Numbered from the stretch's first letter, positions 19,716 to 61,519 are shown. The stretch: DNA of 64,000 bases from Candidatus Omnitrophota bacterium (GCA_022710715.1 JAKLGJ010000004.1:320166-384165), one strand, 5' to 3'. The notes: generated by a model not told the origin, from the letters alone. Numbers and translations are program-made.

Positions 19716-19727
19716 AGTTATGCACAG

Positions 19728-19762: not shown

Positions 19763-19792
19763 ATATACTGCAACGAACAGGAGGGGAAAGTA

Positions 19793-23078: not shown

Positions 23079-23346
23079 GCGGAGAGCGCGCCGAAGAAAA
23101 CGTTTCCAAAAAAAACCCGCCATGGGCTTGAAAACCGGTAATTTTCGGGTAAACTCATACTAGAAAGTCAACCTAGAATGGAATACCCGTCTTCACCCTG
23201 TCGGTGCAGGCGGTCTACTAGAATAAGAATAACGCCACGGTTCTTAATGAATCGTGGCGTTTTCTTTTTCTAGCAGAGGGGAAATCAGAGAAACATGGGG
23301 CTTGAGCTCCACTGAGCAAAAACTCAGAAAAAAAAGGGGGAGAAGC

Positions 23347-23937
23347 ATGTTTACACAAACCAGAGGAGTTGTTGTAGTTCTTCTTGCGGTAGTATTGCTG
23401 TTGGGAACCTGTTCGAACAGTATGGCGTTTATCAGCAATCCCAACGGATGTTTCCGCTCGCCGACCAATGCCGAAGCCAGAGCAGGCCGGAGCAGTTTCG
23501 TTCCGGTCAATTGCCGCACCGGCAATGATCTGTCCAAATCCACCACCTTCAACGCCAAATCGTATTTGTTCAACACCATGCCTGCCAGAAACGTTCTTTC
23601 CACGGTCAGTTTCGATGCCAAAAAGAACCTGAATTCCTCGTTCAACTGGAAAGAATGCGGCGTGCAGTATAACCTGAACATCAAAGGTACGCCGGATGTC
23701 ACCACCAACAGCGTTTCCGGACTGCATTTCAACCAGGGGATCGCCAGCCTGAAAGTGGGCGATACGTTCAATCTGTACCAGGGCAAGGCCAACGGCACCG
23801 ACCAGTCGATCACCCGTTACGGGTTCACCATCAATGAGATCAAAACATCGGCGGACTGCAAGACTGTGGATATCACCATGACCTATGATGCCAAGACCGA
23901 GAACCTCCGGCCGCGGGTTTTTCAGCCTGCTGCGTAA
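23347..23937 (+). CDS. hypothetical secreted protein
   Basis: Signal peptide 'VVVVLLAVVLLLGTCSNSMA'. Asn/Thr-rich beta-type sequence. AAGGGGGAG RBS. Confidence 0.45.
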   Translation: MFTQTRGVVVVLLAVVLLLGTCSNSMAFISNPNGCFRSPTNAEARAGRSSFVPVNCRTGNDLSKSTTFNAKSYLFNTMPARNVLSTVSFDAKKNLNSSFNWKECGVQYNLNIKGTPDVTTNSVSGLHFNQGIASLKVGDTFNLYQGKANGTDQSITRYGFTINEIKTSADCKTVDITMTYDAKTENLRPRVFQPAA

Positions 23938-24047
23938 GCAATACGCGTTGTTGAACGTGTAAAAGTTCAAGAGTTACGACAGGAACGCCTTGATTGTCCG
24001 GCCACCCAACCGCCGGCGGATCAAGGCGTTTTTGTCGTATGCTTGTC

Positions 24048-25340
24048 TTAAACCGTTTTGAACTGCGCCGGCGCAAGGCGATGGATCACCCGCGAGGTCC
24101 AGAAGAAGATCCCGCCTTCGATGATCACGGTGGCGCAGGCGGCTCCCAGCCAGGAAAAAGCGTAGATGCAGCCGAAAATGAGCGGCAGCCCGAACAGCGC
24201 GGCGGTAATGTGTATGCGGGCATAGTTTCTGGTTTTGCCGCAGACCAGGAGAAACTGGACTTTGAAAGCGTTAGCGGCGACAAAAAGCACCGAGAGCAGC
24301 AGCAGGCGGAAAGTGAGGATGACTTCCGGGTAGGGCTTGCCGCAGATCCAGCCGGTGATCAGGCCGGCGCATACGTAGATCAGCGGTATGGAAACCGAGG
24401 AAATCCCGGTGGTGACCTGCTGGATGCGCAGCATCAGCTCCCAGGCTTTCTTGCGGTTGCGCTGGTAGATCTTGCTCAACCGGGGATAGAGCGCCTGGGT
24501 CAGCGAAGCCAGGGGGAACATCTGCACGATCTGGGCCATGCGCTCGGCGATGGAATAATAGCCGGTGAACATGTTGTTGGTCAACAGCCCGACGGCAAAG
24601 ATGCGCGTGGCGGTATACGCGTTGATGGCCACGATCGAAGAGAAAATATTCCAGCCGGATTTGATCTGCTGGCGGATGTCCGGATAAGCCTGGAAGACGA
24701 AGAACACCCCGAATTTGCGAAAGACCATGCGCAGTCCGATGATGCCGGTAATGATCGAGACCCCGGAGTAGATCACCGGGATGCGCAGGTAATCTTCCGG
24801 ACTGCTCACGAAAATGAAGATCAAAGCGGTGATGATCAGGCCGGCGATGATATTCAGCTTCGCGATGTGGCGCATGCGTTCGGTTCCCTGGTAATACCAG
24901 ACCGGAAAGAGCGTATTGCCGATGACGATGCCGAAACTCAAGACGAATACCAGCCAGTCGTGGCGAAAGCGCGGGATAAAGCGCACGATCAACAGCAGCA
25001 GCACGCAGCTGATCACCGCCAGCGCGATCTTTACCGTCATCACCGAGGAGAAAATAGCGCAGACTTTGTCGTTCTTTTCTTTGCACAGCGCGATTTCCCG
25101 GGTGGCGGAAAGATTGAACCCGTAATCGGTCAGGATCAGGAAATACTGCACGAAAGCCTGGGCGAAAGCGATCAGTCCGAATTTTTCCGGTCCGATGACC
25201 CGGATCAGATAGGGCAAGAGCAGCAGGGGAAGGACGTAATTGATCGCCTGCAGGGTGGAGAGCGACAGGAAATTGTGCAGCACCAGCCGGCGTTCGTGGA
25301 AAGAGACCATCTTGAGGATGGTTTTTATTTTTTTGATCAT
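24048..25340 (-). CDS. polysaccharide biosynthesis protein / oligosaccharide flippase (Wzx/MOP family)
   Basis: 430 aa with about 12 TM helices. N-terminus 'LSTLQAINYVLPLLLLPYLIRVIGPEKFGLIAFAQAF' is typical of Wzx-type flippases. Confidence 0.7.
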   Translation of the reverse strand: MIKKIKTILKMVSFHERRLVLHNFLSLSTLQAINYVLPLLLLPYLIRVIGPEKFGLIAFAQAFVQYFLILTDYGFNLSATREIALCKEKNDKVCAIFSSVMTVKIALAVISCVLLLLIVRFIPRFRHDWLVFVLSFGIVIGNTLFPVWYYQGTERMRHIAKLNIIAGLIITALIFIFVSSPEDYLRIPVIYSGVSIITGIIGLRMVFRKFGVFFVFQAYPDIRQQIKSGWNIFSSIVAINAYTATRIFAVGLLTNNMFTGYYSIAERMAQIVQMFPLASLTQALYPRLSKIYQRNRKKAWELMLRIQQVTTGISSVSIPLIYVCAGLITGWICGKPYPEVILTFRLLLLSVLFVAANAFKVQFLLVCGKTRNYARIHITAALFGLPLIFGCIYAFSWLGAACATVIIEGGIFFWTSRVIHRLAPAQFKTV

Positions 25341-25568
25341 GCGCGACTCCGCTTAATCTGTATTTTACTTTACTCTTGAAATGTACTCCCGTCAACAACA
25401 AAAACCCGGTTTGAAACCGTTTTCAGGATACCCCCGCCGGAGTCTTTAATTCGCCCTCTATATAAGGTATACTTATAGCGGTTGGTAACCACACACTCTT
25501 TCTATCCCTTCAATAGAGAGAGCTATTTTTTTAATCACAATCTAAACATTTTCAAAAAGCCGGAGCGT

Positions 25569-28500
25569 ATGTTTCGTAAAATCAACGCGCTGCTGATCAT
25601 TTTCTGTTTTATCTGCGAGCAAAGCGGATTTGCGCAGGTGTCGCCGCAGTCGCCGGTGCCTGCTTATTTAAGCTCGATCGCCTTGCCCCGGGACAGATTC
25701 CGCCCGCTGCATCTGCGCGGCGTAACGTTCGGCGGTGCGGATCGCGGGATGCAATTGCTTCTGGATAAAGGAGACCTGCCTTCGCCTGAAGTCGACCGGA
25801 TCAAAGAAGAGACCCGGATGTTGCTGCGCTATTTCAAGATCGGTCTGGCATTGCCCGATAGCATGTTCTGGGTGAACCTGCGTCCGGACGCGCAGGATCA
25901 GGTGATCGATCCGTATCTGGAAAAGACCGACCTGGGAAAAGTATTGCTGGAAGCCGATCTGCAACTGAAAAAAGACCTGGCGCGTTTTACCCATCCGGAT
26001 ACCCCGGAAGGCCGCAGGTACTGGGACAGATTATATCAGAAGGCCGAACAGATCTACGGGCCGCAGAATCTGACCATTCCTACCTTGACCCGCCCGTGGA
26101 TCGTGCCCGGAGAGATCGTGCTGGGCGAATCGGCTCACGGCGTCTGCATCTATAAGGCTACTTTGAAAGTGATGCTCGAGCAGGACTATCTCAACGATTC
26201 GCCGTTTTTCGCCGCACAGGACGCGCGGCAGAAAGAGCTGAACGCGTATTCTTCCGATCTTATCCGCAAGCTGATCCTGCCGAAATTGATCCGGGAAGTG
26301 AACAGTTCGAAACGGTACGCCGGCCTGCGTCAGGTATATTATTCGCTGATCCTGGCCCGGTGGTTCAAGCAGAAAGCGGCCGCCGGCGCGCCGGCGCTCC
26401 GTCCGGAATGGCAGCGGCTTATCGATTCTCGCGACCTGTCCGGTCTGACTTCCCCGGTTCCCTGGTCCAGAAAATCCTATTTCGACTCTTACCAGCAGTC
26501 CTTCCGCCAGGGAGAGTATAACAAACAGGAACAGTTCGGATTCGCCGGCGGCATGGCCAGCCGGCAGTATTTCTCCGGCGGCGTGCAGATGAACGCCGCG
26601 CTGGTTACGAACGCGGTGTCGACGCTGACTATTCCCGAAGGCTTGCCGGAATTCTTCGGTCGCATTGACGAGTTCATCCGTCTTGATCTGAACGCGGATG
26701 ACAGCATCACTACCGTGCCGCAGGAAAAAGAAGATGTGACCGGCCCGGACGGCGGATTGCCGTCTGCGGATCTTCTCAATCAAGCGCTTGATCAGGCTGA
26801 TGTGACCATATATTCCGGTCCGGCGTTGAGCCAAATGCCTGCCGGCCGGTTGGAATCACTCTGGCAGGGATATAAATCATTCATTCTGGCGCACACCCTG
26901 GCCTTGCGCATGCCGGTGCTCAAAGATTTCCGGCCGTTCCCGGATGTGGAGCGGTTCAATGAGCGTTTCGCCTACGCGCTCAAGGATTGGTTTGCCAGAG
27001 AGACCTCTTTAAGCGGCGTGCCGGTTTTCATCCTCTATGATCCGGTCAAAAAAGTGGCATACAGCCTGCCCGTCAATACCATGGGAACCTCCGCAAAAGA
27101 AATATTCCTTTATGACTTTCCGGATTTGCAGCAGGTAATGGACAACCTTCCGGCGGATGTCCGCCAGCGGTTGCAATTGCGTATCGGCTGGGGCACTAAC
27201 GGCGGGTTAAGAGGGTTTTTTATCCTGGAAAAAGACGATCAGGGTCGGCAACGCCTGGTGGAATTCAAAGGATATACCGTGAATGAAATCAAGAGCGCGG
27301 AGATCTATCGTTCCGGGGATCCTCTGTATTGTTTGAACGAGCAGGCCGGGATGAAAGAGGCCGCTGCTTTGAACGAGCTGGGAGCGGTCGACGCGGCTTT
27401 CACCCGCATCGATACCTATACGGTGCTCATGACCGGAGAAGAAATACAGGTTCCGCTGGGCCAGCTGCGCCGCGAAGGCCAGGTTACGGATTTTACTTCC
27501 CCGGTTACCAGGATGGGGCATATCGTTATCGATTCCCAGGCGCAACTGACCGCAGAGAAGCGAGCCGAACTGTTCGCCGCCGGAAAGAATATGGGCGGGC
27601 AACTGCGTTATCTGCATCAAAGGGCGCGTTTTAACGCCGGCTATAATCCGAACAATAAAATCTATGAATCTTACTGGCATGTGAATAATGTCGATTCCAG
27701 GGGCAATCTTATCGATGTCGTGCTGCGGTCATTCGAAGAGATGGCCGGCGGCAGGTATGACGATAAAAATCCGGAGCATATACAGTTGTTGTTCCAGTTC
27801 ATCCGCGGAGACCTGCGGCGATTCCTCATCGGCACGCGGTCAGGGGGTGACTTCCATGATTACGGATTGCTTAGCAGGATACAGAATAAGGAACATGTGC
27901 GGGCGTTCCTGGAAGGTTTTATAGAGGGATACCTGCCCGAAGGATCCCGGATAGAATTGGAAGAAAAAGACCTGGCGTTATTCCCGCAAAGCACTCTGGT
28001 CAGCCGCATACTTAAACCGGTTGCTCCCCAAAGGGCGCATGACCGCGAAATGAGGGAAGCACAGAGGGAGTATGATCTTGATTTCCGCCTGGCAATGGCT
28101 TTCTTTCTGGCGTTGCCGGCGTCAGCACAGCCGGATCAGCAGGGTAACACCGGCCCGGACGGCGGCAGGAGGCTGGAAAGTCTGAAAGATATGTTCCTGG
28201 ATGTCGCATCGACGGCGTTTCCCGATCTTGAGCCGGCGGCAGTCACCGGCGGAGTGGCTGCTGATCTGCGGCATATCACTGCCGAGCATTCGATTTCAAT
28301 CCCGGGATTTTCTTTCGCGACCAGCGCGATGAACGGATCGCGTCACGCAGCTTTTGAGCATGTCCGCTCTACCGGTTTCAGCGATCCCGAAATCGAAAAA
28401 GCCTGGGACAGCGCGACCACCGATCCTGCCGCGCATGATCCGGCGGCGTTCAGATATATCGTGCATGCGGTGCAATCTCCTAATTCACGGATGATGCGGG

Positions 28501-31500
28501 ATATGCTGACCCTGGAATTAGGGGTGACCGAAGATCCGAGCCGCAGCATTGATCTGACTCGTTTCCCGGATCGAATCGCGGAGAAAACGGTTATTTCAAC
28601 TTCATTCATCGATCAGGATCATCGAAAAACCTGGGCTGATTGCGGATTTATACTCAAGGTTCCGGGTCGCAATATCATTTCCACTTCACCGCAAGACGCC
28701 GGGTCGCTGTTTTGGGAAGGGATAAGCTGGGTGAAGCAGGCTTTGCGCTCGAGGATTTTGATGTCGCCTGAAGATCTTATTTCAGCAAGTGATGCATTCA
28801 CATATAACGAGGTAGTCCTTACCGGCACGCATCCGGATTTTCCGGATTCGCGGGTGGAAATAGTTGGCGTTTTCTTGAAACGGTTGGAAAACGGCGTGCT
28901 CGCGGTTCATGCCAATAATCAGGGAAGCGATCTCTGGAACTTCACCAGCGAGCGTTCGATTGCCAGTCGGCTGATGTACCAGGCCAGAGAGCATGGATGG
29001 CCGATTATCTATATCGATGAACCGATAGAGAAATATGAGGATAATGAGCCCCAATTCTGGGAATCAGTTACCGGAAATGGGACGTTTCACATTGCAGTTC
29101 ATTCGGGAGGCAAGAGGTATCTGGTCACGCGCGAAAAAGACGGAAAAGCCCGTGCATGGGTGTTTGAGCAGGGCGGAGATATTTCCAGGCGAATGAGCGC
29201 GCAGGATTTCGATCTGTGGCATTCCCTGGTATTGCCCTATGTGCAGGCGCATGGTCAGGAAATTCCGTCGGATCCGTTTTTTTCTACAAGAACAGCGGGA
29301 ACGACAGTGAACGAATTCTATGCCGCGGTCATCGGCGATGATGCGGTGAAATGTAAAAAGGAGCTTCTTGACGGCGGTAAGAAGTCGTTTACTACCATAA
29401 ATAACCTTGATCCGGTGGCCGAACAGATCAAGACTATGCCGGCCGGCGGAGTGGTTTATCTGGATGTGGATAATATTATCATCAGACATGACAGCAAGTT
29501 ATATCCCACCGATAAATTCCGCACTGTCCGTTACAACATGCTTAAGCGGGCCAATCCTGCGTTATCGATCGAAGAGGCGGCGAAAACAGTCATTCCGGAA
29601 GTCGCTTATCTGGAAATGATCGCTTTCCGGGCAGGGTTGATCAATGACGTCGAGCGGATCAGCCGGATTGTCGCTCTGGCCAAAGAGCGGAAGTTGCGGG
29701 TGGTAGTGGTAAGCAATCGCTCGCAGGATCTGGCTTCGGGAACCCGGGATATGATCGCGCAACTGGGCGTTTCCGGCATCGATGAATTTCACTTCGTGGG
29801 CAGGGGTAATGACACCAAAGCCGCGAAGATCAAGGAACTTATGGAAGCGGATAAAGTCAGCCATGCGGTTTTCGTGGACGACCTCAAAGGCAACGGCCAG
29901 GCGGTATTCGATCAGATATCGCAGCTGCCCGGGGTAGAGTCGATCAGCGTGTTCCATCTCCAGCAGCAGCGTGAAGAACGTTCTTATCAAGATTATCTGC
30001 GGTCCATAACCGTTATGCTTGCGCTAAAAGATCTGGTTGATCCCGGAGAATTCGAGCTGCTGATGGTCAGCGCCTTGCTGAAGATCAGCGAGGATCCGGC
30101 ATTGCGGGGATTGAACGAGTTGCTCGATCTGATCAGGAAAAACGGCCTGAACGCGCCGCATTTCCTGGGCCAGGGGCTGGTGGAAGAATATTTCAAAGAG
30201 TTGGGCGTGGATCTTGAGTCAGACGCTCTCGATATGGAAAAGATCCGTAAACAGGCGGAGCGGGAGGTCAAAGAAGAGGACGTGGAGGATTTCGCGCGGC
30301 TGCTGGGATTCGATGATGAAGTGATCGTGCAGGGTTTCAGCGATACGGAGCTGGCTCACTGGCACGACAAGGTGCGTCAACTGCGCCGCGCTGCTGCGGC
30401 TGCCGCAGCGAAAGCGGGTAACGCGGTATCCCTTCCCACGGACCTGACTGCGGCGGAAGTAGAGTTCTTCCTGGAGGATGCGGCGCAGCCGCCGGGGTCC
30501 GCCAGAGAGCGTACTCCCCGGAGCGTCCTGGCGCAGCGTTTCAGTAACCTGCTGGCATTCACCCTGTTGATGGCCGCCACGATCTTCTCGGGAGGATTGC
30601 TGCTGCAGCATGATGATCATCAGGATGACTTTATTACGCCGGATGACAGTCTCCCGGCCCTGACCATCAATAAGACCGCGGCTTTTAACAATCTTACCCA
30701 TTCTCCCATGGACTCGCGGTATTATGAGAATCTCAAAAACTACGGCACACCGCCCAAAGTCACCACCGAAGGCCGCAAGATATTTATCGGCGGCGTGGAA
30801 TACAAAGTACGGGCTGTCGCTTTTTCGAACGTACCGGAAGGACAGACGTTCGATGATCTCGTGCTGGATGCGGATCATTTGTCGGATCACGATCTGCAAT
30901 TGATGCAGGCGGCCGGGGTCAACACCATCAGTACCTATTATGCGCCTACCTTCGACTTCCTCGATGAGTGCATGAAATACAATATCCGGGTGATCGTGGG
31001 GATCCCGTATTACGATACGCGTATCCATCCGGGGCCGGATATCAAAACAGGCAGTTATATCGATTACATGGCGTTATACATGAACCATCCCGCGGTGCTC
31101 TGGGTCAAGCTGGGCAATGAATACAATTATCATCCTGAATGGTTCGAGGGCGACGTGGATAACTGGTATCGCGCGATGGATACCGCCGCGCTGACGCTCA
31201 AAGCCATCGATACCAACCACCCTGTTTCCACTGCCCAGGGATATGTCCCTGATATCGGCACTCTCGACAAGTTGAAAAATATCGATGTGATCGGGATCAA
31301 TGGCTATACCTTCGACGATTATTCCGGGATGATCGCCGATTTCAAGGCGAAATCGCCCAAGCCGTTCATATTTACCGAAGCCGGCACCGATTCCTATAAT
31401 ATGATCACCAACTCTCATGATGAAGCGTCTCAAGCCGTAGCCTTGAAACATATCTCGCGCAGCATCGATAATGATCCGGATTGCGCGGGCTGGACGGTAT

Positions 31501-33011
31501 TCGAATGGATCAACGAGCCGGTCAAAGGCTTCGGCGGATGGGGGAACGGGCCGATCCTGGGTCCGCTGGTGCGAAAATTCGGAGGCTCGGGGGTCTATCC
31601 CGACGATATGAGCAACGAGCGCTATTTCGGTTTGCTCACCGAAGACGGCGTTCCCAAGATGTCTTATTACGCGATAATGGAAGAATGGTCCGCAAGAGAA
31701 GTTCTTCCTATAGCTGCCGGCGAACCGGAGGGCGGCGGTCCGGACGGCGGCGCTTTTGCCCTTTCGACCATTGCTCACGCTTTGAAGAGCGATTTCTACT
31801 CGCTGTACGAAACCGCCGCAGGCGACGTGCCGGTGTATATCATGCGCGATCACGGCCTGGCGCTGGCCGGCTGGGAGCTGGCCCGTCTCAAAGGTCTGAT
31901 CTACGGCAAGAAGGAAAAACGCGCCGGAGAGAAGACCGTGCTGGTGCATTTCGATGAGCATCACGACATGTCCGACGGCCAGGCGTACGACCTTGAGCGG
32001 CCGGATCTGGCAATAATCAATCTTTACTATAACGTCAATCAGTTCATCGCGCCGGCAGTGGAGAGCGGGTTGGTCGATGAGATCTACTGGGTCGTTCCCG
32101 ATGATCAGGCGATCGATCCCGAAGACTCCATCCAGACCTATTATTCCGCCCGGTTGATCTTATCCGACGGCACCACGACGGCGTATCTGGCCCGGCAGCA
32201 ACCGACGCAGAGTTCCTATCCTGACCTGGAGCGAATCGAAAATATGCGGGAGGTCCGGGTGCAGAAGATTCATTCCCGCGCGCTGCCGGATTTGAAAGGT
32301 GCCGGTCCGGCTATCGTGGATATCGACGCGGATTACTTCGCTTTTGAACGCCGGGGCGGCGCGGAAAAAGATCCGGGCGTGATTCAGGCGCAGATCAAAG
32401 AAACGCTCGATGCGATAAAGGAAAAAGTGACGCCGGGAGTGATGACTCTGGCTATGTCTTCCGGCTATACTCCGGAAAATCATACGCAGTTGATCATGGA
32501 GAAGCTCGTTACCGGAATAACCGGTTCCGCAGATCCGCAGATCGAGCGGGCTGTGACATTGTTGAATCCCATGCTTGCGGCCTGGAAAATGCTGCACGTT
32601 CCTAACCGGCCGGATAAAGCCGCAGAAGCGCCGGCAGAGCCTGCGAGACCCGTGGATCAGGGGCAGGCCAGAGAGGGCGGCATAGATTTCCGCAGTTTGC
32701 CTTTGGCCGGCGGTCCGGCGTCGGCGGCAACGGATGTCGATCTTTTAGCGGCGCAATTGCGACAATTGGCCGCAGCTTCCAGCATCACCGATCTGGCGCA
32801 GGAATGGTCGCGCATCGAAGAACAGATCCGCACGCAGGAAGTTCCCTGGCAGCGGATCAAAGAATTCTGGGCGGTGTGCAGCCAGCGCGGGGACGGACAC
32901 CATTATAAATCCCGAGTGGTCAGTTGCATTGTCGGAATGATGCGCCTGGAGGAAGAATCGGCTGTTGCTACTCCAACGCAGCTGAAAGATCTGCTCGTTT
33001 GTATGGGATAA
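25569..33011 (+). CDS. giant secreted multidomain protein (paralog 1): shared N-module, HAD-like, clan GH-A TIM-barrel-like and UPF0489/arginase-fold-like regions, shared C-module
   Basis: Signal peptide 'MFRKINALLIIFCFICEQSGFAQV', with GGAG 5-9 nt upstream of the ATG. HAD-like motifs 'VVYLDVDNII' / 'VVVVSNRS' / 'FVDDLKG'. GH-A signatures 'KLGNEYNY' and 'IFTEAG'. 'LVHFDEHHDM' / 'IVDIDADYF' follow. The first ~380 aa and last ~100 aa are homologous to ORF 58067..61519. Confidence 0.7.
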   Translation: MFRKINALLIIFCFICEQSGFAQVSPQSPVPAYLSSIALPRDRFRPLHLRGVTFGGADRGMQLLLDKGDLPSPEVDRIKEETRMLLRYFKIGLALPDSMFWVNLRPDAQDQVIDPYLEKTDLGKVLLEADLQLKKDLARFTHPDTPEGRRYWDRLYQKAEQIYGPQNLTIPTLTRPWIVPGEIVLGESAHGVCIYKATLKVMLEQDYLNDSPFFAAQDARQKELNAYSSDLIRKLILPKLIREVNSSKRYAGLRQVYYSLILARWFKQKAAAGAPALRPEWQRLIDSRDLSGLTSPVPWSRKSYFDSYQQSFRQGEYNKQEQFGFAGGMASRQYFSGGVQMNAALVTNAVSTLTIPEGLPEFFGRIDEFIRLDLNADDSITTVPQEKEDVTGPDGGLPSADLLNQALDQADVTIYSGPALSQMPAGRLESLWQGYKSFILAHTLALRMPVLKDFRPFPDVERFNERFAYALKDWFARETSLSGVPVFILYDPVKKVAYSLPVNTMGTSAKEIFLYDFPDLQQVMDNLPADVRQRLQLRIGWGTNGGLRGFFILEKDDQGRQRLVEFKGYTVNEIKSAEIYRSGDPLYCLNEQAGMKEAAALNELGAVDAAFTRIDTYTVLMTGEEIQVPLGQLRREGQVTDFTSPVTRMGHIVIDSQAQLTAEKRAELFAAGKNMGGQLRYLHQRARFNAGYNPNNKIYESYWHVNNVDSRGNLIDVVLRSFEEMAGGRYDDKNPEHIQLLFQFIRGDLRRFLIGTRSGGDFHDYGLLSRIQNKEHVRAFLEGFIEGYLPEGSRIELEEKDLALFPQSTLVSRILKPVAPQRAHDREMREAQREYDLDFRLAMAFFLALPASAQPDQQGNTGPDGGRRLESLKDMFLDVASTAFPDLEPAAVTGGVAADLRHITAEHSISIPGFSFATSAMNGSRHAAFEHVRSTGFSDPEIEKAWDSATTDPAAHDPAAFRYIVHAVQSPNSRMMRDMLTLELGVTEDPSRSIDLTRFPDRIAEKTVISTSFIDQDHRKTWADCGFILKVPGRNIISTSPQDAGSLFWEGISWVKQALRSRILMSPEDLISASDAFTYNEVVLTGTHPDFPDSRVEIVGVFLKRLENGVLAVHANNQGSDLWNFTSERSIASRLMYQAREHGWPIIYIDEPIEKYEDNEPQFWESVTGNGTFHIAVHSGGKRYLVTREKDGKARAWVFEQGGDISRRMSAQDFDLWHSLVLPYVQAHGQEIPSDPFFSTRTAGTTVNEFYAAVIGDDAVKCKKELLDGGKKSFTTINNLDPVAEQIKTMPAGGVVYLDVDNIIIRHDSKLYPTDKFRTVRYNMLKRANPALSIEEAAKTVIPEVAYLEMIAFRAGLINDVERISRIVALAKERKLRVVVVSNRSQDLASGTRDMIAQLGVSGIDEFHFVGRGNDTKAAKIKELMEADKVSHAVFVDDLKGNGQAVFDQISQLPGVESISVFHLQQQREERSYQDYLRSITVMLALKDLVDPGEFELLMVSALLKISEDPALRGLNELLDLIRKNGLNAPHFLGQGLVEEYFKELGVDLESDALDMEKIRKQAEREVKEEDVEDFARLLGFDDEVIVQGFSDTELAHWHDKVRQLRRAAAAAAAKAGNAVSLPTDLTAAEVEFFLEDAAQPPGSARERTPRSVLAQRFSNLLAFTLLMAATIFSGGLLLQHDDHQDDFITPDDSLPALTINKTAAFNNLTHSPMDSRYYENLKNYGTPPKVTTEGRKIFIGGVEYKVRAVAFSNVPEGQTFDDLVLDADHLSDHDLQLMQAAGVNTISTYYAPTFDFLDECMKYNIRVIVGIPYYDTRIHPGPDIKTGSYIDYMALYMNHPAVLWVKLGNEYNYHPEWFEGDVDNWYRAMDTAALTLKAIDTNHPVSTAQGYVPDIGTLDKLKNIDVIGINGYTFDDYSGMIADFKAKSPKPFIFTEAGTDSYNMITNSHDEASQAVALKHISRSIDNDPDCAGWTVFEWINEPVKGFGGWGNGPILGPLVRKFGGSGVYPDDMSNERYFGLLTEDGVPKMSYYAIMEEWSAREVLPIAAGEPEGGGPDGGAFALSTIAHALKSDFYSLYETAAGDVPVYIMRDHGLALAGWELARLKGLIYGKKEKRAGEKTVLVHFDEHHDMSDGQAYDLERPDLAIINLYYNVNQFIAPAVESGLVDEIYWVVPDDQAIDPEDSIQTYYSARLILSDGTTTAYLARQQPTQSSYPDLERIENMREVRVQKIHSRALPDLKGAGPAIVDIDADYFAFERRGGAEKDPGVIQAQIKETLDAIKEKVTPGVMTLAMSSGYTPENHTQLIMEKLVTGITGSADPQIERAVTLLNPMLAAWKMLHVPNRPDKAAEAPAEPARPVDQGQAREGGIDFRSLPLAGGPASAATDVDLLAAQLRQLAAASSITDLAQEWSRIEEQIRTQEVPWQRIKEFWAVCSQRGDGHHYKSRVVSCIVGMMRLEEESAVATPTQLKDLLVCMG

Positions 33012-33171: not shown

Positions 33172-36100
33172 ATGTCCGGAATAAAAATAGATCGGAACAC
33201 ATTACTCATCGCTGCCCTCGGTCCAGCGCTCTGGTTGCTGGACGGGTTGTTGATGTCGGTACTGTTCAAAGAGAATCTTCTCCGGCAATTATTTCTTCCC
33301 AAAGGGCCGGATTTCATCGTCAACCTGCTTTTGTTCTTCCTGCCCGGAGCTCTGGCTGTGGTCTTCACCCGCGACAGCGGCGAAACCCCGCCCTCCCCGC
33401 CCAAACCCGCTTTTGACCTGACAAAAGGCAACGCCATACTTATCGACGGATCCGGCAAGATCATCGAAGCCAACGATAATATTTTGGCTCTGCTCGGCCA
33501 TACCCAGGAGCAGCTCGCCGGTTCGGAGATCACTCAAATCTGCGGCAAAACCGATCCGCAGAAAGTATTCGCGTTTATCGCGGAAGTCCTGGAGCATAAA
33601 GACGGCATACTCGATAATATCGCGGTGTTCGGCAAGAGCAAGGTCATGCGCGCGGATATCCGCGGCAGGCTGATCAAGAATTTCCGGCGGGATATACCCC
33701 AAGCCATTTTGTTGGAACTGGCGCCGCGCCTTCCGGCTGCCGCCGCGCAAGTTCCGGCCGCGCAAGCTCCGGCTGCCCAGGCAGGGTCTGTAACTCCGGC
33801 AGCGCAACCGCAGCCTGCAGTTTCGCCTCAACCGCAACATCCGTCGCTCAAAGACATCATTGCCGCCATTGTCCCTGCGCAGCCGCAGCAGGCGTCGTCA
33901 TCGCAGTCGCAATCGCCGCAGTCGCCGTCTCCGCAGCCGCCGCAACAGCAGGAATCTCCGGCGAAATTTGATCAGGAGCGCAGGAAGATCGAAGACGCGG
34001 TCCGGACACAGGAGCAGAAAAAAGCGCAGGAACAGATCCAGGCTCTGGAGCAGAAGCACGCCCGGGAAATGGTCGAGAGAATGACCCAGGAACGCAAACG
34101 CATGGAAGTGGCTTTCCAGGAACAGGCCCGCAAGCTGCTGGAAGAAGAGCGCAAGCGTCTGGAAGATTCCATCCGCAGGCAGGAACAGAACGCTGCCCAG
34201 GAAAAGATCCGGGCGCTGGAGAGCCGGCAGGCGCAGGAGTTAAGCGTCAGGCTGGCCAATGAGCGCAAACGTCTGGAACTGGCTTTGCGCGAAGAAGAGC
34301 AGCTCACCACCACGCGCATCGAAGATTCCCTGAAGAAAAAATTCGAGCAGCAGCTGCGCGCGCAACTGGATGAAGATCGTAAACATTGGGAAGCCACCAC
34401 GCGGCAACTGGAGAAGACTCTGGAACAGCAGATGGAACGCCAGGTCCGGTTGCGCGTTGAAGATGAACGCAAGCGCCTGGAACAATCCGTGCGCCACGAA
34501 GAGCAGAAAAAAGCCCAGGAACAGGTGCAGGCGGTGACCAAACATTTTTCCGAAGAACTGAACCAGAAGCTTACCGAAGAGCGCAAGCGGCTGGAGCCGA
34601 TCATTCGGGGAGAAGAGCAGAAGAAAGCCGAAGAGAGCCTGCGCACCCTGGAGAACCGGCACGTGCAGTCGCTGGGAGTCAAGATCGCCGAGGAACGCCG
34701 GCGCACCGAAGAAGCCGCGCGCAAGGAAGAGCTCAAGAAGCTGCAGGAAACCGAAGCTTTTCTCGCCAGGCAGCATGAGACGGAGACGCGGCAGCGCCTG
34801 GAAGAAGAACGCCTCCGGGTGGAAGCAGAGATCCGCGGCCAGGAACGCGCGCGGGCGGAAGAGCAGCTCGCATTGCTTAAAACCCGGCATGCCGAAGAAT
34901 TGGCTTTGCGCATCGAAGAAGAAAAGAGCCGGGTTGAAGCCCAGGTGCGCCAGCAGGAGCGCCAGGCCGCGCAGGAGCAAATCTTCGTTCTGAAAAATCA
35001 GCAGGCCCAGGAACTCTGGGTTAAGATCGCCGAGGAGCGCAAGCGTCTGGAAGATACGGTCCGGACCGAAGAACGCAAGCGCGCGCAAGACGTGGTCCGC
35101 CTGGAAGAGCAAAGCAAGGCCCAGGAGCAGATCCGGCTGCTGGAGAATAAATTCGCCGTTGAGCTGGGGCAGAAGATCGCGGAAGCCAGGAAGCAGATCG
35201 AAGAAGCTGTCCGGCAGGAAGAGATCAAGAAAGCCCAGGAGAATCTGCGTCAGATCAACACCGAGCATGCCGAAGAAACCTGGCGTAAATTGAACGAGGA
35301 ACGCGCGCGGGCTGAAGAAGCCACGCGCCGGCAGGAAGAGGAGAAGCATCTGCGTTTGCTGGAGGAGCTGAAAGCTACTTACGCCCGGGATCTTGCCGCT
35401 AAACTGGAGCAGGAACGCAAGCGCATCGAAGAAACCGTCCGCCAGGAAACCGAACACGCCCTGCAGGAGCGCGTGCGTAACCTTGAACAAACCCAGGCCC
35501 GGGAATTCACCGCGCAGATGGCTGAAGAACGCCGGCGCCTGGAACAGCTCATCCGCCAGGAAGAACAAAAGAAGCGGGAAACGCTGGAGGCAATGCTCAA
35601 GAAACAATACGTCGACGAATTGCAGCAGCAACTGGCAGAGGAGCGGCGTAAGGCGCAAGAGTCTCTCCGTCAGCAGGAGGGGCAGACATTTCGCCAGCAG
35701 CTGCAGGAAGTCGACCAGAAATACGCGCAGGATCTTAACGCGAAACTATCCCTGGAACGCCAGAAATTCGCAGATCAGCACGCGTTGCTGGAAGTGCAGA
35801 TCCGCCAGCAGGAGCAGCAGAAACTTCAGCAGCAGATCATCGACCTGGAGAATAAACACGCCGCGTATATGGCCGGCAGGATCGCCGAGGAGCGCAAACA
35901 GGTGGAAGCAGCGGTGCGTCAGGAAGAGCGCAAGAAAACCGAAGAAACGATACAGGCGTTAAAAGCGCTCTACGCCCAGGAGGCGAAAGCCGCCCAGGCG
36001 CAACAGACGCCGCAGCCCGCGCCTGTCGCCGCGCCGGCGATTATTTCCGCCGAGCAGCGCAAGCAGATAGAAGAAACTGTGCGCCAGGAAGAGCGCAAGA

Positions 36101-36989: not shown

Positions 36990-37177
36990 AAAAGGCCATA
37001 AATACTACAATATGATACACTGCGCCCGTGGCTTAGCGAGGCTTGTGCAGGCGGGTATTTGCAGAATAGCGGTAGAAGTAGAAAGCCGAGCGTATCCTGT
37101 ACGATGCAAGGAGATCCCGAAGGGATCGACGCAGCGGTTATCGTACAGGACAACTGGATAGATAGAGTGCAATTTTT
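36990..37177 (+). pseudogene. disrupted tRNA-Arg 5' fragment with ~150-nt structured insert
   Basis: GCGCCCGTGGCT (acceptor/D-stem of the downstream tRNA-Arg) at about 37013, then about 150 nt including CCTGTACGAT...ATCGTACAGG and GATCCCgaagGGATC hairpins, then CAACTGGATAGATAGAGTGC (D-loop-like), AATTTTT, and the intact tRNA. Confidence 0.4.
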
Positions 37178-37251
37178 GCGCCCGTGGCTCAACTGGATAG
37201 AGCACTAGCCTACGGAGCTGGTTGTTGGTGGTTCGAATCCACCCGGGCGCA
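37178..37251 (+). tRNA. tRNA-Arg (anticodon ACG)
   Basis: Hand-folded cloverleaf: acceptor GCGCCCG/CGGGCGC, D-arm GCTC-AACTGGATA-GAGC, anticodon stem CTAGC/GCTGG with loop CT-ACG-GA, T-arm GGTGG-TTCGAAT-CCACC, discriminator A. Confidence 0.85.
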
Positions 37252-37297
37252 TTAAATTTCCCCGAAGACCCGGTCATGCGATCGGGTTTTCAAGCAT

Positions 37298-37768
37298 ATG
37301 GCGATGAAAAAACTCGACGAATTGTTCATGGCGCAGGCGATCAAAGAAGCAGCCAAGGCTTTTGAGAAGGATGAGGTGCCGGTGGGTTGCGTGATCGTGC
37401 ACAAAGGCAAAGTGATCGCCAAAGGCCACAATCAGGTGGAGATGCTCAAAGATCCCACCGCGCACGCCGAGATGCTGGCTTTGACTTCCGCCGCCAACGC
37501 GCTGGGCTCAAAGTGGTTGAACGGCGCTTCGATCTATGTTACAATTGAACCTTGTAGCATGTGCGCCGGGGCGTTAGTGCTCGCCCGGATCAAAGAGATC
37601 GTTTTCGGCGCTCCGGACCCCAAAACCGGCGCCTGCGGTTCGGTATTCGACATCGCCAACTGTAAAAAGCTGAATCACCGCATCCAGGTGCGCTCCGGCG
37701 TGCTGGAAGCGGACTGCGCGCTGCTGTTGAAAGAGTTCTTCCGCAAGAAACGCGCGAAAGAGAATTAA
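37298..37768 (+). CDS. tadA: tRNA-specific adenosine(34) deaminase
   Basis: 'HAEMLAL' and 'PCSMCAGAL' are the CDA zinc-ligand motifs (H-A-E, PCxxC). 156 aa. Confidence 0.85.
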   Translation: MAMKKLDELFMAQAIKEAAKAFEKDEVPVGCVIVHKGKVIAKGHNQVEMLKDPTAHAEMLALTSAANALGSKWLNGASIYVTIEPCSMCAGALVLARIKEIVFGAPDPKTGACGSVFDIANCKKLNHRIQVRSGVLEADCALLLKEFFRKKRAKEN

Positions 37769-37795
37769 GATTGGGGGAAGCCCCGTTAAATTTGG

Positions 37796-37884
37796 GGAGA
37801 GGTGGCAGAGTGGTCGAATGCAACTCACTGCTAATGAGTTATCTGGGGAAACCTGGATCCTGGGTTCAAATCCCAGCCTCTCCG
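37796..37884 (+). tRNA. tRNA-Ser (anticodon GCT)
   Basis: Acceptor GGAGAGG/CCTCTCC, anticodon stem AACTCA/TGAGTT with loop CT-GCT-AA, long variable arm, T-arm CTGGG-TTCAAAT-CCCAG, discriminator G. Confidence 0.85.
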
Positions 37885-37950: not shown

Positions 37951-38064
37951 AGCCACGCAGCAAGGCTTAAAATCCCGCTCATTTCCTTCAAGAAGCTGGT
38001 AAAAGTCAGCTTCCTTCGTTAAGCAGTCTGCAATGCTCGTCGAGATTTCGAAATGGGAGGATAA

Positions 38065-38391: not shown

Positions 38392-38395
38392 AGAG

Positions 38396-39336: not shown

Positions 39337-39376
39337 CGCCTGCTTATTCGTAAAAAATAAAATTTCGGGAGATTCT

Positions 39377-58066: not shown

Positions 58067-61000
58067 ATGCGTTTTTTCAAGAGATGTGTCGCTTTTTGTA
58101 TTGTTTTTTGTTTAGCTTTCGAACAATCAGGATTCGCGCAGGTAGCGCCTCAAATGGGCGTGCCGGCATACCTGGCCGGGCTCCTCGCGCAGGACCGGTA
58201 CCGTCCGGTACATCTTCGCTCGATCTCGATCGATCCGCAGACGGATCGTTACGTTATCCTGCTGGATAAAGGCGACAGCAGGGATCTTAAAGCCCCGGAG
58301 ATCGAAGCGACCACCAGAAAATTACTGGAATATTTCAAGATCGGCGTAGCTTTGCCCAACAGCATGTTCTGGGTGAACCTGCGTCCGGATTCGGACGCGA
58401 ATATCATCGATCCGTATCTGGAACGCACAGATATGGGTAAGGTGTTTTTGGCCGCGGATGTGCAGCTGAAAAAAGACCTGGCCCGGTTCACTTCCCCGGA
58501 TACCCGGGAGGGCAGGGAGTACTGGAATAAGCTTTACGCCCGGGCAACGGAGCTTTTCGGTGCGCAGGGAAATGTTACCATCCCCACGGTCGCCCGGCCC
58601 TGGATCGTGCCGGGAGAAATTATCCTGAAGCAGACGCTTCAGGGCGCTTATGTGCATAAAGCGGTGATGAAAGTGTGCCTGGAGCAGGATTGGATCAAGG
58701 CGCAGACTGCCACCAACGGCCTCCCGGAGCAGGGTGTTGCTGTGCCCGCTGACGCCCGTTTTCAGACGCTCAACGCTTACTCTGCACAGCTGCTGCGCGC
58801 GTTGATCATCCCCAGGCTTACCCGCGAAGTCAATTCTTCCCAAAGATATTCCGCACTGCGTCAGGTATTCTATTCGCTGGTGCTGGCGCAGTGGTACAAG
58901 GCCAGCCGCAGCGCTGCCGGCGCGGCCGTTGATCCCGGACTGCTCATGGATTCGAAGGACCTGACCGGGCTGACTTCACCGCAGTCCTGGTCGAAGCAGG
59001 ACTATTACCGGGACTACCGCAGATCTTTTCAGGAGGGCGAATATAATAAACAGGAACAGGTGCGCGCGCAGGGCGGCATCGCGATCCGCCGGTATTTCAG
59101 CGGCGGAGTTGCGGGGGCGATCGATCCTTCCTCAATAATCGTACTGCAGCAGCGCGGCAATAGTAATGGGTTCCAGGTTACGCCCGCGACGGTCCGCGTC
59201 GAAGTCTCACCGGAAGGAATAACGGCGCAGTTACCCGACGGCGGCGCCAATCTTGACGAGCAGCAGGATGCTTTATTGCAACCAGCGCGTGACCGGGTCG
59301 TTGCTGCCCTCGATCAAAGGATCGCCGGCGGGAAAAGAGCGCGTAACGCGGCTTTTATTTCGATGGCGATCTCCGGGATTTTTCTTGCCGCATCGTTCTA
59401 TCTTAATTTTTCCACTACCGTGACATTGGTCGGTTCGGCGTTCGCCGCGCTGGTAACGTTTGTATCGGGTATGAACTCCAATGTGTATGTCGATCACTAC
59501 CAGCGGGCGCGTAAGAGGGCGCAGGCCGCGGAAACGCTGATCCCGCAGGATGTGATCAGGATCGCGCAGCCATTCGGGGATTTTCACGGGATCGCGGCGA
59601 CTCCTTTTGCCATTGTGCTGGGCGCAATGACGGCGTCCTTGCTGCGCCACGGGGCGTACCTGCTGTTCAATCCGTTTTTTTTCTCGGCGTATATCTCTGC
59701 GGCCGCGATCACCGGATTGTTGGCATACAAGCTCTGGGATGAATCGAAGGCAGAAGAGCATCTGGAAAATGAAACCGATGAAGTGGTGGCGGAGGCTTCC
59801 GGGGATAAAGAAAAGGCGTACCGCAATGCCGTTGCGGCAGCCCGGCAGCTCATCGCTTCCGGCGATAATTACAGCGCGGAAGATCTGGAAAAAGAAACGA
59901 ACGTCCTGTACTTGCAGGAGTTGATCGCGCAAATCGACGCTCTGGCAGACAGCCGCGGCGCATCCGGCCTGGCGTATCGCGAGAGCGATATTAAAGCGAT
60001 GGCCCAGCGCCGTTTGCTGGCCAAACTGATTTCGAATCGCTATACCCGGGATCCGGTGCCGTTCTCGGAGGAGTATCGCCGCTTTAAATGGAGGAGCGCC
60101 ATATTCCACGCCATGTACCTCGACCACGACGGCACGAAGAAGAAGGCCTTGCGCAGCCCCTACTGGGATACGGTGGGGATCGATCTAAGCGGAGTCGGCA
60201 TTCTCACGGAGTTTGATCTGGACAGGATAACGGAATCGATCATCGCATCCACCAGGGAAGAACAGGACGGCGGCACCGGGGTTGCTCGAGCAGGGATGGT
60301 GCTGGACGTGGCTGAAATACGGGAGGCGCAGCGCAGAACTGCGGTATTGGCGCAGATTGCCGATATCCTTCTCCATGGCGGCGGGACGAACGGAGAGCGG
60401 CTCTATAAGGCGAGCCAGCTGCTCCAGGAAACCGGCCTGTCCCGGGACCGGGATTTCATGAAGCGGGTGCACCGCATCCTGGATGAGCGCGACCGGCAGC
60501 GGAGCGAGGAAGGGCTGGACGGCGGGAGTGAGAAGGGAAATGAGAATATCAAGAAGATCGATAAAGAGATCAAAGAGATCGATGACTATCTTGAGAGGGT
60601 GCCTGTGCCTATGTGGACGCGCGACAGGTTGCTGCGCGAGAGGAAAGATTTAGTCAACGAACGTACGGTGGAAGCTATCGGCGGCCCGGAGATCAAGGAA
60701 ATTGTCCGGATGAAAGAGATCCTTGACGGCCCAGGCCTCTTACCACTCAATAGATGGCAGTATCTGAACGAGGAAATAAAGTTCCAAGAAGTACGAATGG
60801 GCAGAGATAAGGATCGGAAAGCCCGATATGAATCTTATATGAAAGAACACGACGGCGGCAAGGTCTCTCGGGACGAAATGAATGACAACGACGGCGGGAT
60901 CAATGACTTCAGTGAATCGGGCTGGAGAGATTATCAGGCGCAGCGGGCGCGCGATGAATTCGAACGCGAAACCTATGAGCGGGAATTGAGAACGGTGGAG

Positions 61001-61519
61001 AGGGAGAGGTATTTTTCTTCCGGTGACCCGGATAAAGATAGAGCTATAGCCGAAAGAATAGCGCGGGAGCGGACGGACGAGATAATGAGGCATAACCCGG
61101 CGAGCGCATTCAGGGATAGCGACGGCGGCGCGGCAAAAATAGACGACGCGAAAAAAGCCGGCAGGATCGGCGATGAATTGAATGACAAGGATGACGGCGT
61201 TGAGCCGGTCGGCGGTATCGATTTCAGGGCTGTTCCGGTCGTTCCGGCAGCGCCGGCCGCGATACCGGCGCTTGCTGCGCATCCGGCGACTCTGCGGCAA
61301 CTGGAGCGGGACTGGGATACCATTTCCCGCAAGCTGGAGCAGGGCGAGGTTCCCTGCGCTGCATTGAAGGAGTACGCAGCCGCCTGCGTGGCGCATAAGG
61401 ATGCGCGGAAACAGTTGCTTGCAGTTTCCGCCTGTATCGACACTATCCTGCGCATGGAGGAAGATGCTGCGGTAGTCACGTCGGCAGAGATGAAGGAGAT
61501 CCTGGCGATTATCGGTTGA
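58067..61519 (+). CDS. giant secreted/membrane protein (paralog 2): shared N-module, TM segment cluster, highly charged central region, shared C-module
   Basis: Signal peptide 'MRFFKRCVAFCIVFCLAFEQSGFAQV'. The first ~380 aa align residue-by-residue with 25569..33011 (for example 'FKIGVALPNSMFWVNLRPD', 'PWIVPGEII', 'TREVNSSQRY', 'QEGEYNKQEQ'). Hydrophobic helices sit at about aa 430-560. C-terminal 'GGIDFR...RMEED' module is shared with paralog 1. Confidence 0.7.
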   Translation: MRFFKRCVAFCIVFCLAFEQSGFAQVAPQMGVPAYLAGLLAQDRYRPVHLRSISIDPQTDRYVILLDKGDSRDLKAPEIEATTRKLLEYFKIGVALPNSMFWVNLRPDSDANIIDPYLERTDMGKVFLAADVQLKKDLARFTSPDTREGREYWNKLYARATELFGAQGNVTIPTVARPWIVPGEIILKQTLQGAYVHKAVMKVCLEQDWIKAQTATNGLPEQGVAVPADARFQTLNAYSAQLLRALIIPRLTREVNSSQRYSALRQVFYSLVLAQWYKASRSAAGAAVDPGLLMDSKDLTGLTSPQSWSKQDYYRDYRRSFQEGEYNKQEQVRAQGGIAIRRYFSGGVAGAIDPSSIIVLQQRGNSNGFQVTPATVRVEVSPEGITAQLPDGGANLDEQQDALLQPARDRVVAALDQRIAGGKRARNAAFISMAISGIFLAASFYLNFSTTVTLVGSAFAALVTFVSGMNSNVYVDHYQRARKRAQAAETLIPQDVIRIAQPFGDFHGIAATPFAIVLGAMTASLLRHGAYLLFNPFFFSAYISAAAITGLLAYKLWDESKAEEHLENETDEVVAEASGDKEKAYRNAVAAARQLIASGDNYSAEDLEKETNVLYLQELIAQIDALADSRGASGLAYRESDIKAMAQRRLLAKLISNRYTRDPVPFSEEYRRFKWRSAIFHAMYLDHDGTKKKALRSPYWDTVGIDLSGVGILTEFDLDRITESIIASTREEQDGGTGVARAGMVLDVAEIREAQRRTAVLAQIADILLHGGGTNGERLYKASQLLQETGLSRDRDFMKRVHRILDERDRQRSEEGLDGGSEKGNENIKKIDKEIKEIDDYLERVPVPMWTRDRLLRERKDLVNERTVEAIGGPEIKEIVRMKEILDGPGLLPLNRWQYLNEEIKFQEVRMGRDKDRKARYESYMKEHDGGKVSRDEMNDNDGGINDFSESGWRDYQAQRARDEFERETYERELRTVERERYFSSGDPDKDRAIAERIARERTDEIMRHNPASAFRDSDGGAAKIDDAKKAGRIGDELNDKDDGVEPVGGIDFRAVPVVPAAPAAIPALAAHPATLRQLERDWDTISRKLEQGEVPCAALKEYAAACVAHKDARKQLLAVSACIDTILRMEEDAAVVTSAEMKEILAIIG

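Follow-up and report, generated by a model that had tools for sequence, protein, structure and literature searches.

What does a protein of 2480 residues do when it appears to carry three different enzymes and is encoded back to back with a polysaccharide flippase? The question is raised by a 64,000-nucleotide stretch from the genome of a Candidatus Omnitrophota bacterium (GCA_022710715.1, JAKLGJ010000004.1:320166-384165), called the window below. A preliminary description, made from the DNA alone, had read phosphatase-like, glycoside hydrolase-like and arginase-like regions in one gene of this window, and had proposed a secreted, multi-activity enzyme that acts on a glycan or envelope polymer exported with the help of the neighbouring flippase. 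The Omnitrophota are nanobacteria that depend on hosts and have not been cultured, and the long multi-enzyme proteins they encode still lack an explanation. The gene, referred to as the mosaic gene or paralogue 1, is best explained, at a probability of about 65%, as encoding an exported mosaic protein whose conserved terminal caps enclose an HAD phosphatase, a beta-glycanase of glycoside hydrolase clan A (clan GH-A) and a UPF0489 ureohydrolase. By their sequences all three enzymes look catalytically competent. The earlier interpretation as a whole is partly supported, since its enzyme assignments largely held and its link to the flippase did not.

Three enzyme modules and their catalytic residues

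The mosaic gene lies in one long open reading frame (ORF; 25482..33011, plus strand), and translation from the ATG at 25569 yields 2480 residues beginning with MFRKINALLIIFCFICEQSGFAQ. Identical proteins are present in NCBI (HOW42388.1/HRZ14726.1), JGI, ENA and Logan, on contigs of up to 1.6 Mb; because these records are independent, an assembly or frameshift artefact was ruled out. The NCBI entry is a 'hypothetical protein' of a Candidatus Omnitrophota metagenome-assembled genome (MAG), locus P5110_04370. All nine motifs that had been quoted in support of the three catalytic regions fall within this single protein, each in the place claimed for it (Table 1), and each region proved to belong to the proposed superfamily, with its named catalytic residues conserved in homologues.

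The first region escaped ordinary searches, as a Pfam/NCBIfam scan of the whole protein gave nothing over it and a word-indexed homologue search with the segment alone found no match. An exhaustive profile search of 1.84 billion representative sequences was needed, and it recovered 17 modules with E < 1e-10, mostly within long proteins, followed by about 70 short proteins; all ten of the short relatives examined are distant, stand-alone DUF2608 or Acid_phosphat_B proteins. Six other proteins of the family described below contain a homologous module, and Pfam HAD models match all seven weakly to moderately (PF03767 in 7/7, best E 1e-7, plus PF00702 and PF12710). Among PDB entries, a profile of the seven modules finds P4/lipoprotein E of Haemophilus, a class C acid phosphatase (E 1e-3). 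Residues D1299, D1301, K1417 (motif III in the alignments) and D1437 and the (S/T)NR of motif II are invariant among the seven. When 27 modules are aligned, D1299 and D1301 are at least 90% conserved, and K1417, D1437 and the motif II position, which is S1382 here and Thr in most homologues, are invariant. The AlphaFold2 model built on these 27 sequences reached a predicted local distance difference test score (pLDDT) of 89.2 and a predicted template modelling score (pTM) of 0.85. Its top 50 Foldseek matches in the PDB all belong to the HAD superfamily (probability about 1.0), led by the class B acid phosphatase AphA (E 1e-5), with the class C enzyme P4 lower and phosphoserine phosphatase and plant VSP also among the fifty. 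Pfam, profile and modelled structure thus agree, and the HAD assignment is confirmed at the level of the predicted fold; judged by the same model, the nearest relatives are the class B/C acid phosphatases of the periplasm or cell surface. The module would form an aspartyl-phosphate intermediate on D1299, use D1301 as general acid/base and require Mg2+. The spidroin N-terminal domain was weakly matched by the profile over the helical tail (E 0.03), which was judged to be due to chance.

For the glycoside hydrolase (GH) segment, 448 homologues were found (best E 4e-57). The best 120 are mostly stand-alone proteins of about 320-430 residues, sharing 35-41% identity over 85-90% of the query, and those with a named source come mostly from Bacteroidota, with one from Sumerlaeota. 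Many of the stand-alone homologues carry a sorting domain of the type IX secretion system (T9SS) and others have signal peptides, so they are secreted. They exceed the Pfam threshold of PF02836 (GH2 TIM barrel). The closest solved relative is the GH158 enzyme 9ORO, which is the best PDB match of the query as a single sequence (E 2e-8, 36.8 bits) and of its profile (E 2.6e-15), where many GH2 barrels follow at 1e-13 to 1e-8. In an alignment of 20 sequences, neither the string GNEYNYHPEWF nor the nucleophile Glu varies. Moreover, E1851 and E1937 align at a constant numbering offset with Glu143 and Glu229, the catalytic pair of GH158(Pro) (PMC13195107). Clan GH-A and the two catalytic glutamates had thus been read correctly, and it is the proposed GH5/GH72 likeness that did not hold. 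No GH5 match appeared in the Pfam scan, and the GH72 model (PF03198) covered about 70 residues at E 0.058 in the whole protein and 0.0036 in the segment, or 13-17 bits against a cut-off of 25.9. Because GH72 stays below threshold, the module should be described as GH158/GH2-like rather than as GH5 or GH72. It would be a retaining beta-glycanase acting by double displacement, in which E1937 would serve as the nucleophile and E1851 as the acid/base.

The third module was matched by the NCBIfam peptide arginase model NF052474 (E 3e-12), by Pfam UPF0489 (PF12640, E 5e-5) and, motif by motif, by the OspR structure 8BRP (E 2e-3). The Mn ligands of OspR are His12, Asp39, His41, Asp43, Asp165 and Asp167 (PMC10028609), and they map to H2095, D2129, H2131, D2133, D2253 and D2255, with all six kept. 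The same six residues are conserved in the homologous modules of four other proteins (P0003, P0004, P0010 and P0081 in our numbering), and in the first three of these UPF0489 scores 29-31.6 bits, above the Pfam threshold. Of the two kinds of metal site that had been suggested, the UPF0489/arginase type is therefore retained and the deacetylase type is not. By its sequence the module has a binuclear-Mn site of the ureohydrolase type and is not a member of the FlmR/OhkR family. It would hydrolyse a guanidino group by means of a metal-bridged hydroxide.

Taken together, the gene product would be a Sec-targeted mosaic of an Omnitrophota-specific family, built from caps, variable cargo and a recurrent DGG tripeptide that punctuates the modules. 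This copy would carry two further modules (A and B) besides the three enzymes. Its role would lie in the extracytoplasmic processing of polymers or of their breakdown products, and not in a partnership with Wzx.

Several observations weigh against this explanation. The query itself scores below the curated cut-offs of all three enzyme classes: its HAD segment reaches at best 15.5-16 bits (DUF2608, HAD_SAK_2), below the Pfam cut-offs, no GH model exceeds its curated threshold, UPF0489 gives 24.1 bits against a Pfam gathering threshold of 27, and the FlmR/OhkR model NF052474 gives 46.6 bits against a cut-off of 350. The assignments therefore rest on profiles, homologues and fold. HAD motif I reads DVDNI instead of the usual DxDxT, with Ile and not Thr/Val at the fifth position. 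The nearest characterised relatives of the GH module, the GH158 enzymes, are only about 25-30% identical to it, and their C-terminal Ig-like domain is absent here, where the interval from residue 2045 to the DGG at 2059 leaves no room for it; a specificity for beta-1,3-glucan, drawn from this likeness, would be only a guess. Peptide arginases are cytoplasmic maturases of RiPPs (peptides that ribosomes make and that are modified after translation), and no RiPP-type genes were seen among the neighbours scanned. Finally, a cleaved signal peptide followed by a single membrane helix (residues 1661-1683) would place the GH, arginase-like and C-terminal domains in the cytoplasm, although the charge bias at that helix, like the fact that relatives of the GH module are secreted, speaks for its GH side being outside.

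Table 1. Features of the mosaic gene, its paralogue and the adjacent flippase gene (nucleotide positions in the window)
Feature	Position	Strand	Residues (aa)	Details
Wzx/MOP polysaccharide flippase gene	24048..25340	-		PF01943, E 6e-53; divergent, 228 bp upstream of mosaic gene
Mosaic gene (paralogue 1)	25569..33011	+	1-2480	Stop codon 33009-33011
Signal-peptide-like N-terminus	25569..25637	+	1-23	MFRKINALLIIFCFICEQSGFA, then Q; hydropathy scan, family consensus
N-domain	25638..26738	+	24-~390	Roughly 370 aa; FWVNLRPD, TRPWIVPGE, LRQVYYSLILAQWFK, GEYN, YFSGG
DGG junction 1	26748..26756	+	394-396	End of N-domain; disordered tail of model (pLDDT < 50)
Module A	26757..28094	+	397-842	Shared only with P0002, P0005
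Short hydrophobic, signal-peptide-like segment	28089..28127	+	841-853	LAMAFFLALPASA, then Q; third most hydrophobic stretch
DGG junction 2	28158..28166	+	864-866	Modules A/B; between P0002 alignment blocks 1-842 and 908-1251
Module B	28167..29369	+	867-1267	P0002 only, 45% identity over aa 908-1251
DGG junction 3	29370..29378	+	1268-1270	Start of HAD module
HAD phosphatase-like module with helical tail	29379..30248	+	1271-1560	1268-1560 with DGG start
VVYLDVDNII	29451	+	1295	HAD motif I, D1299/D1301
VVVVSNRS	29700	+	1378	HAD motif II, S1382
AVFVDDLKGN	29865	+	1433	HAD motif IV, D1437/D1438
Charged Ala-rich linker	30249..30548	+	1561-1660	From translation
Strong hydrophobic helix	30549..30617	+	1661-1683	LLAFTLLMAATIFSGGLLL...; highest hydropathy in protein
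Clan GH-A (beta/alpha)8 module	30771..31703	+	~1735-2045	Homologues, GH158 structure, invariant columns
RAVAFSNVPEG		+	1748	GH module motif
GVNTISTYY		+	1783	GH module motif
KLGNEYNY		+	1847	Putative acid/base E1851
IFTEAG		+	1934	Putative nucleophile E1937, in TEAG
DGG junction 4	31743..31751	+	2059-2061	GH/UPF0489; alignments of UPF0489 modules start at aa 2053-2071
UPF0489/peptide-arginase-like binuclear-metal hydrolase module	31827..32573	+	~2087-2335	
LVHFDEHHDM		+	2125	DxHxD: D2129, H2131, D2133
IVDIDADYF		+	2249	D2253, D2255
C-domain	32673..33008	+	~2369-2480	GGIDFR..LP ... EW ... C ... C ... EEE ... LK..L
Paralogue 2	58067..61519	+		1150 aa; same signal peptide, N-domain and C-domain, different centre
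DGG sites of paralogue 2	59237, 60266, 60518, 60851, 60890, 61121	+		Six sites

Conserved caps, variable cargo and membrane topology

A search with the whole protein returned 569 matches, of which the best 119-120 were used for the family comparisons. The best 119 are 1.3-4.3 thousand residues long, and all those with a named source come from Candidatus Omnitrophota/Omnitrophica. What they have in common is limited to the first ~350-390 residues (46-62% identity) and the last ~110; the N-domain is common to 119 of the best 120 homologues and the C-domain to more than 100 of them. The centres vary and include HEAT, phosphomannomutase/PGM, GNAT, ROK kinase, metallophosphoesterase, HATPase, transketolase/transaldolase, enolase and M48 peptidase domains, among others. 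By sequence comparison the query is thus one of hundreds of Omnitrophota proteins with common caps and swapped cargo, a membership that the preliminary description had missed. At least four members are encoded in this MAG (P5110_00560, _01130 and _04370, plus paralogue 2). The second copy in the window bears out the earlier designation of the enzyme region as the centre of a paralogue: in a tblastn comparison, paralogue 2 matches only residues 1-339 of the query (54% identity) and 2370-2480 (31%), that is, its N-terminal 339 and C-terminal 111 residues. The centre of paralogue 2 has four hydrophobic helices (residues ~430-550), a long charged region and six DGG motifs, and no recognisable enzyme domain was found in it.

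Among Pfam, NCBIfam and PDB sequences, neither cap has a match. The N-domain has no match in Pfam or NCBIfam, and its AlphaFold2 model (pLDDT 80.8, pTM 0.80) has no significant structural match in the PDB or BFVD. The C-domain, which is also found in paralogue 2, gave no PDB or NCBIfam match as a profile. Likewise, modules A and B have no sequence match in Pfam, NCBIfam or the PDB, and the linker at residues 1561-1660 has no homologues among the family matches.

The GH module sets the query apart from the other long family proteins among the top hits, none of which has such a module. In P0010 (1660 residues) an HAD module (residues 387-669) is followed by a UPF0489 module (917-1171) with no GH module between them. 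Since the same two modules occur in the same order without it, the GH module looks like an insertion between them. The strong helix at residues 1661-1683, which had also been overlooked, coincides in alignments with the signal peptides that the stand-alone GH homologues have at their N-termini, which suggests that the module was captured together with its own signal-anchor sequence.

How much of the protein leaves the cytoplasm depends on this helix. The N-terminus resembles a Sec-type signal peptide, with cleavage predicted after residue 23, and export by this route is plausible; to that extent the earlier view of a secreted enzyme stands. The internal helix is preceded by four Arg and followed by six Asp and may be a signal anchor or transmembrane segment that introduces the GH module, so that the protein may be divided between the two sides of the membrane. 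In a crude hydropathy scan, about half of the family shows no internal helix. The short segment at residues 841-853 is a weak candidate for a second membrane segment, and both segments together suggest that modules brought signal sequences of their own when they were captured. This short segment has the look of a signal peptide with an AxA cleavage site (ASA before Q) and stands just before the second DGG junction. A further observation concerns the signal peptide region itself, whose family consensus …F.LIFEQ(S/A)GFAQ(V/I)A… hardly varies among the 119 homologues (FEQSGFAQ in the query). To our knowledge, ordinary Sec signal peptides show no such conservation, and the region may act as a specialised signal for sorting or anchoring.

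These segments permit a split topology, in which the N-domain and module A are outside, residues 841-853 return the chain, module B and the HAD module are cytoplasmic, and helix 1661-1683 exports the remainder, so that the enzymes would act on both sides of the membrane. Such an arrangement obeys the positive-inside rule, which predicts an N-in/C-out orientation for helix 1661-1683. It leaves the GH module outside, as with its secreted relatives, and brings both caps to one side of the membrane, as is also the case for paralogue 2 with its four helices and for the helix-less half of the family; the rank of residues 841-853 as the third most hydrophobic stretch, with a signal-peptide look ending in ASA before Q, also speaks for it. 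On the other hand, that stretch has only about 13 residues, which is too short for a standard transmembrane helix, the HAD module has its closest relatives, the class B/C acid phosphatases, in the periplasm or at the cell surface, and the hydropathy scan behind the scheme is crude. We consider it a possible arrangement, though still an unlikely one, and export of all three enzymes remains the preferred reading.

The DGG tripeptide and the genomic neighbourhood

The tripeptide DGG occurs four times in the query against 0.95 expected, each time at the border of independently homologous blocks. For instance, BLAST aligned the query with homologous HAD modules in six cases, and in four of these the alignment starts exactly at residue 1268, where the homologues read DGG[YF]K[TS][IV]. 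Across the 119 homologues DGG is the most enriched tripeptide of all (467 observed vs 82 expected, 5.7-fold), while its permuted forms range from 0.65- to 0.85-fold and the stand-alone GH proteins, taken as controls, have none against 14.9 expected. None of 39 DGG in six proteins lies inside a recognised domain, where 15.4 would be expected (P about 2e-9), and in P0016 and P0031 every Pfam domain stands between successive DGGs. Module junctions are also marked by DGG in P0003, P0016, P0031, P0055 and P0063.

A signal at the nucleotide level was considered and rejected. All ten DGG sites of the two paralogues in the window read GACGGCGG, an octamer found 14 times in the window against 3.4 expected, and GAC is used at 17/17 DGG sites of P0063. 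Codon context explains most of this pattern, as GAC encodes 10 of the 14 Asp that stand before any Gly, GGC encodes the first Gly in 41 of 48 Gly-Gly pairs, and low-GC relatives use GAT. Seven such low-GC relatives (L001-L007) have the same architecture with 0-1 DGG. Codon context and this scarcity therefore indicate that DGG is a lineage-restricted feature of the protein sequence. A literature search for the motif strings returned nothing relevant.

The regular placement of DGG raises the alternative that the protein is a polyprotein, a precursor cut at (K/R)DGG by a C39-type double-glycine or an S8-type basic-residue peptidase to free the enzymes and the other modules, with caps that serve targeting or processing only. 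Besides its enrichment and its absence from recognised domains, DGG is preceded by K or R at 52% of the 467 sites with a median spacing of 222 residues, and it falls in low-confidence linker segments of both AlphaFold2 models (HAD module and N-domain). Giant Omnitrophota proteins contain C39 and S8 peptidase domains, and their cleavage has been proposed by West-Roberts et al., who had no data on where it would take place (10.1101/2023.11.21.568195). Against this, the residue before DGG in the query is P or L and not K/R, no peptidase gene was found among roughly 30 ORFs scanned in the window, the low-GC relatives keep the architecture almost without DGG, the N-terminal border of the GH module has none, and DGG could be a plain structural linker or N-cap. 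We regard a polyprotein as unlikely for this copy.

An extension of this idea, that (K/R)DGG is a processing signal and the caps a dedicated export and processing carrier, with which capped polyproteins deliver interchangeable enzymes to the cell surface or to prey, is speculative and equally doubtful. If it were true, the released cargo would include enzymes that are cytoplasmic in other bacteria, the N-domain would represent a novel kind of module for secretion or translocation, which fits its lack of a PDB match, and DGG would provide the first concrete cleavage-site hypothesis for long and giant Omnitrophota proteins.

The role first proposed for the protein, that of a secreted multi-activity enzyme paired with Wzx and acting on a glycan or envelope polymer that the cell itself exports (for instance by trimming or modifying an exopolysaccharide or O-antigen-like chain), starts from a sound observation. 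The flippase gene is real, divergent and separated by 228 bp, a signal peptide is present, and a glycanase and a phosphatase could in principle treat a phosphorylated glycan. However, tblastn detected no Wzx, histidine kinase, response regulator or PilZ gene within ~8-10 kb when eight other loci of the family were examined. Paralogue 2 likewise has unrelated neighbours, since it lies between the genes for a bile-acid/Na+ symporter and for a pyridoxal phosphate (PLP)-dependent enzyme. Given these results the adjacency looks incidental. The many paralogues per genome with interchangeable cargo, and the lack of glycosyltransferase, Wzy and Wzz genes among the flanking ORFs scanned, also tell against it, and we consider this role improbable. 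Least probable of all is that the modules are inactive relics serving as binding or scaffold domains of an adhesin-like surface protein, for although giant Omnitrophota proteins are often proposed as adhesins and the query scores below the family cut-offs, all tested catalytic and metal residues are kept in the three modules, in the most conserved alignment columns.

Other features of the window concern its wider context. Directly downstream of the mosaic gene, a histidine kinase gene (33172-36957, plus strand, 1261 aa) encodes an N-terminal PAS and a C-terminal HATPase domain and about 700 residues of degenerate, E/R/K/Q-rich coiled-coil repeats (…EERKRLE..VRQEEQKKAQEQI.ALE…). These repeats account for an AT skew of 0.44 at 34-36 kb and are too diverged at the DNA level for Tandem Repeats Finder. 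A TadA-like deaminase gene (37298-37768) is grouped with tRNA-Arg(ACG) and tRNA-Ser(GCT) at 37177-37884; the TadA family edits tRNA-Arg(ACG). Positions 38000-47500, about 9.5 kb of 41-47% GC against about 55% elsewhere and with a DUF6448 gene inside, are probably a genomic island inserted beside the tRNA-Ser gene. The plus-strand stretch 17142-20134, which lies upstream of the mosaic gene by a few kb, contains a gene for a DUF2339 membrane protein and, after it, a small one with a PilZ domain; PilZ genes are reported beside giant Omnitrophota genes by West-Roberts et al. (10.1101/2023.11.21.568195). Two AsmA/DUF748/YhdP-like genes of the outer-membrane lipid-transport type (2632-4380 and 11115-12902, plus strand) and a gene (8132-9298) whose N-methylation motif resembles that of type IV pilins point to a diderm envelope that has components of a pilus or type II secretion system. 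Long ORFs of up to 461 residues antisense to the Wzx and mosaic genes (23994-25379 and 23254-23937, plus strand; 30219-31964, minus strand) have no family matches and are most likely not genes.

Relation to known enzymes and to long Omnitrophota proteins

The individual enzyme modules belong to known superfamilies, and their domain calls alone are routine annotation. With the class B/C acid phosphatases (AphA 1Z88/2B82; P4/lipoprotein E 3OCY; PF03767) and DUF2608 (PF11019), the HAD module has the Rossmannoid fold in common. The acid phosphatases, which are periplasmic or surface enzymes about 12-15% identical to it, also have the DxD nucleophile motif, the (S/T)NR of motif II, the Lys of motif III and the Asp of motif IV. 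Unlike them, the module is part of a giant protein, has Ile for Thr in motif I and carries an extra helical tail of ~90 residues, which is kept among the Omnitrophota modules. The GH module shares its clan GH-A barrel with GH2 TIM barrels (PF02836) and with the GH158 beta-1,3-glucanases (BuGH158; GH158(Pro) 9ORO, PMC13195107), and with the latter an acid/base Glu after Asn (GNE) and a nucleophile in TE-x-G. It represents a distinct subfamily marked by GNEYNYHPEWF, with members of roughly 335 residues, none of them characterised. By homology, the third module has the arginase fold of the peptide arginases (OspR 8BRP; FlmR/OhkR NF052474; PF12640) and shares DxHxD and DIDxDYF with them, while their EEH-like His motif is RDH in the query. 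Unlike the peptide arginases, it is probably extracytoplasmic and is fused to other enzymes.

What appears to be undescribed before is the capped family architecture with its DGG punctuation. No mention of the caps or of the DGG motif was found in the searched and read parts of the two reports on long Omnitrophota proteins (10.1101/2023.11.21.568195 and 10.64898/2026.06.07.730766). The family gathers mid-sized multi-enzyme Omnitrophota proteins into a coherent group. The DGG rule offers a way to cut long proteins into modules for structure prediction and also a testable cleavage-site hypothesis, and the query exemplifies how a secreted glycanase, which seems to have brought a signal sequence of its own, was inserted among modules already in place. 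Extracellular activity of the enzymes, if it occurs, would point to a lifestyle in which beta-glycans, phosphorylated compounds and arginine-containing peptides are degraded.

The closest parallels as whole proteins are the giant proteins of the same phylum. Both reports describe multi-enzyme proteins: the long or giant 'Archaeovorins' (West-Roberts et al. 2023, 10.1101/2023.11.21.568195) and the 'multi-enzyme metabolic' long proteins that include HAD, HATPase, PGM and ROK domains (Nielsen & Lui 2026, 10.64898/2026.06.07.730766). The giants studied have at least 10-30 thousand residues, against 1.3-4.3 thousand in the present family. With 2480 residues and one strong internal helix, the query falls outside the length and many-helix definition of an Archaeovorin. 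Nevertheless, giants and capped proteins alike have signal peptides and/or transmembrane helices and string together normally stand-alone enzyme domains (HAD, HATPase, PGM, ROK, GNAT, HEAT and others). The giants are proposed there to handle host or prey material, and the polymer-processing role favoured here for the mosaic protein fits the multi-enzyme long proteins proposed for a host-dependent or predatory phylum.

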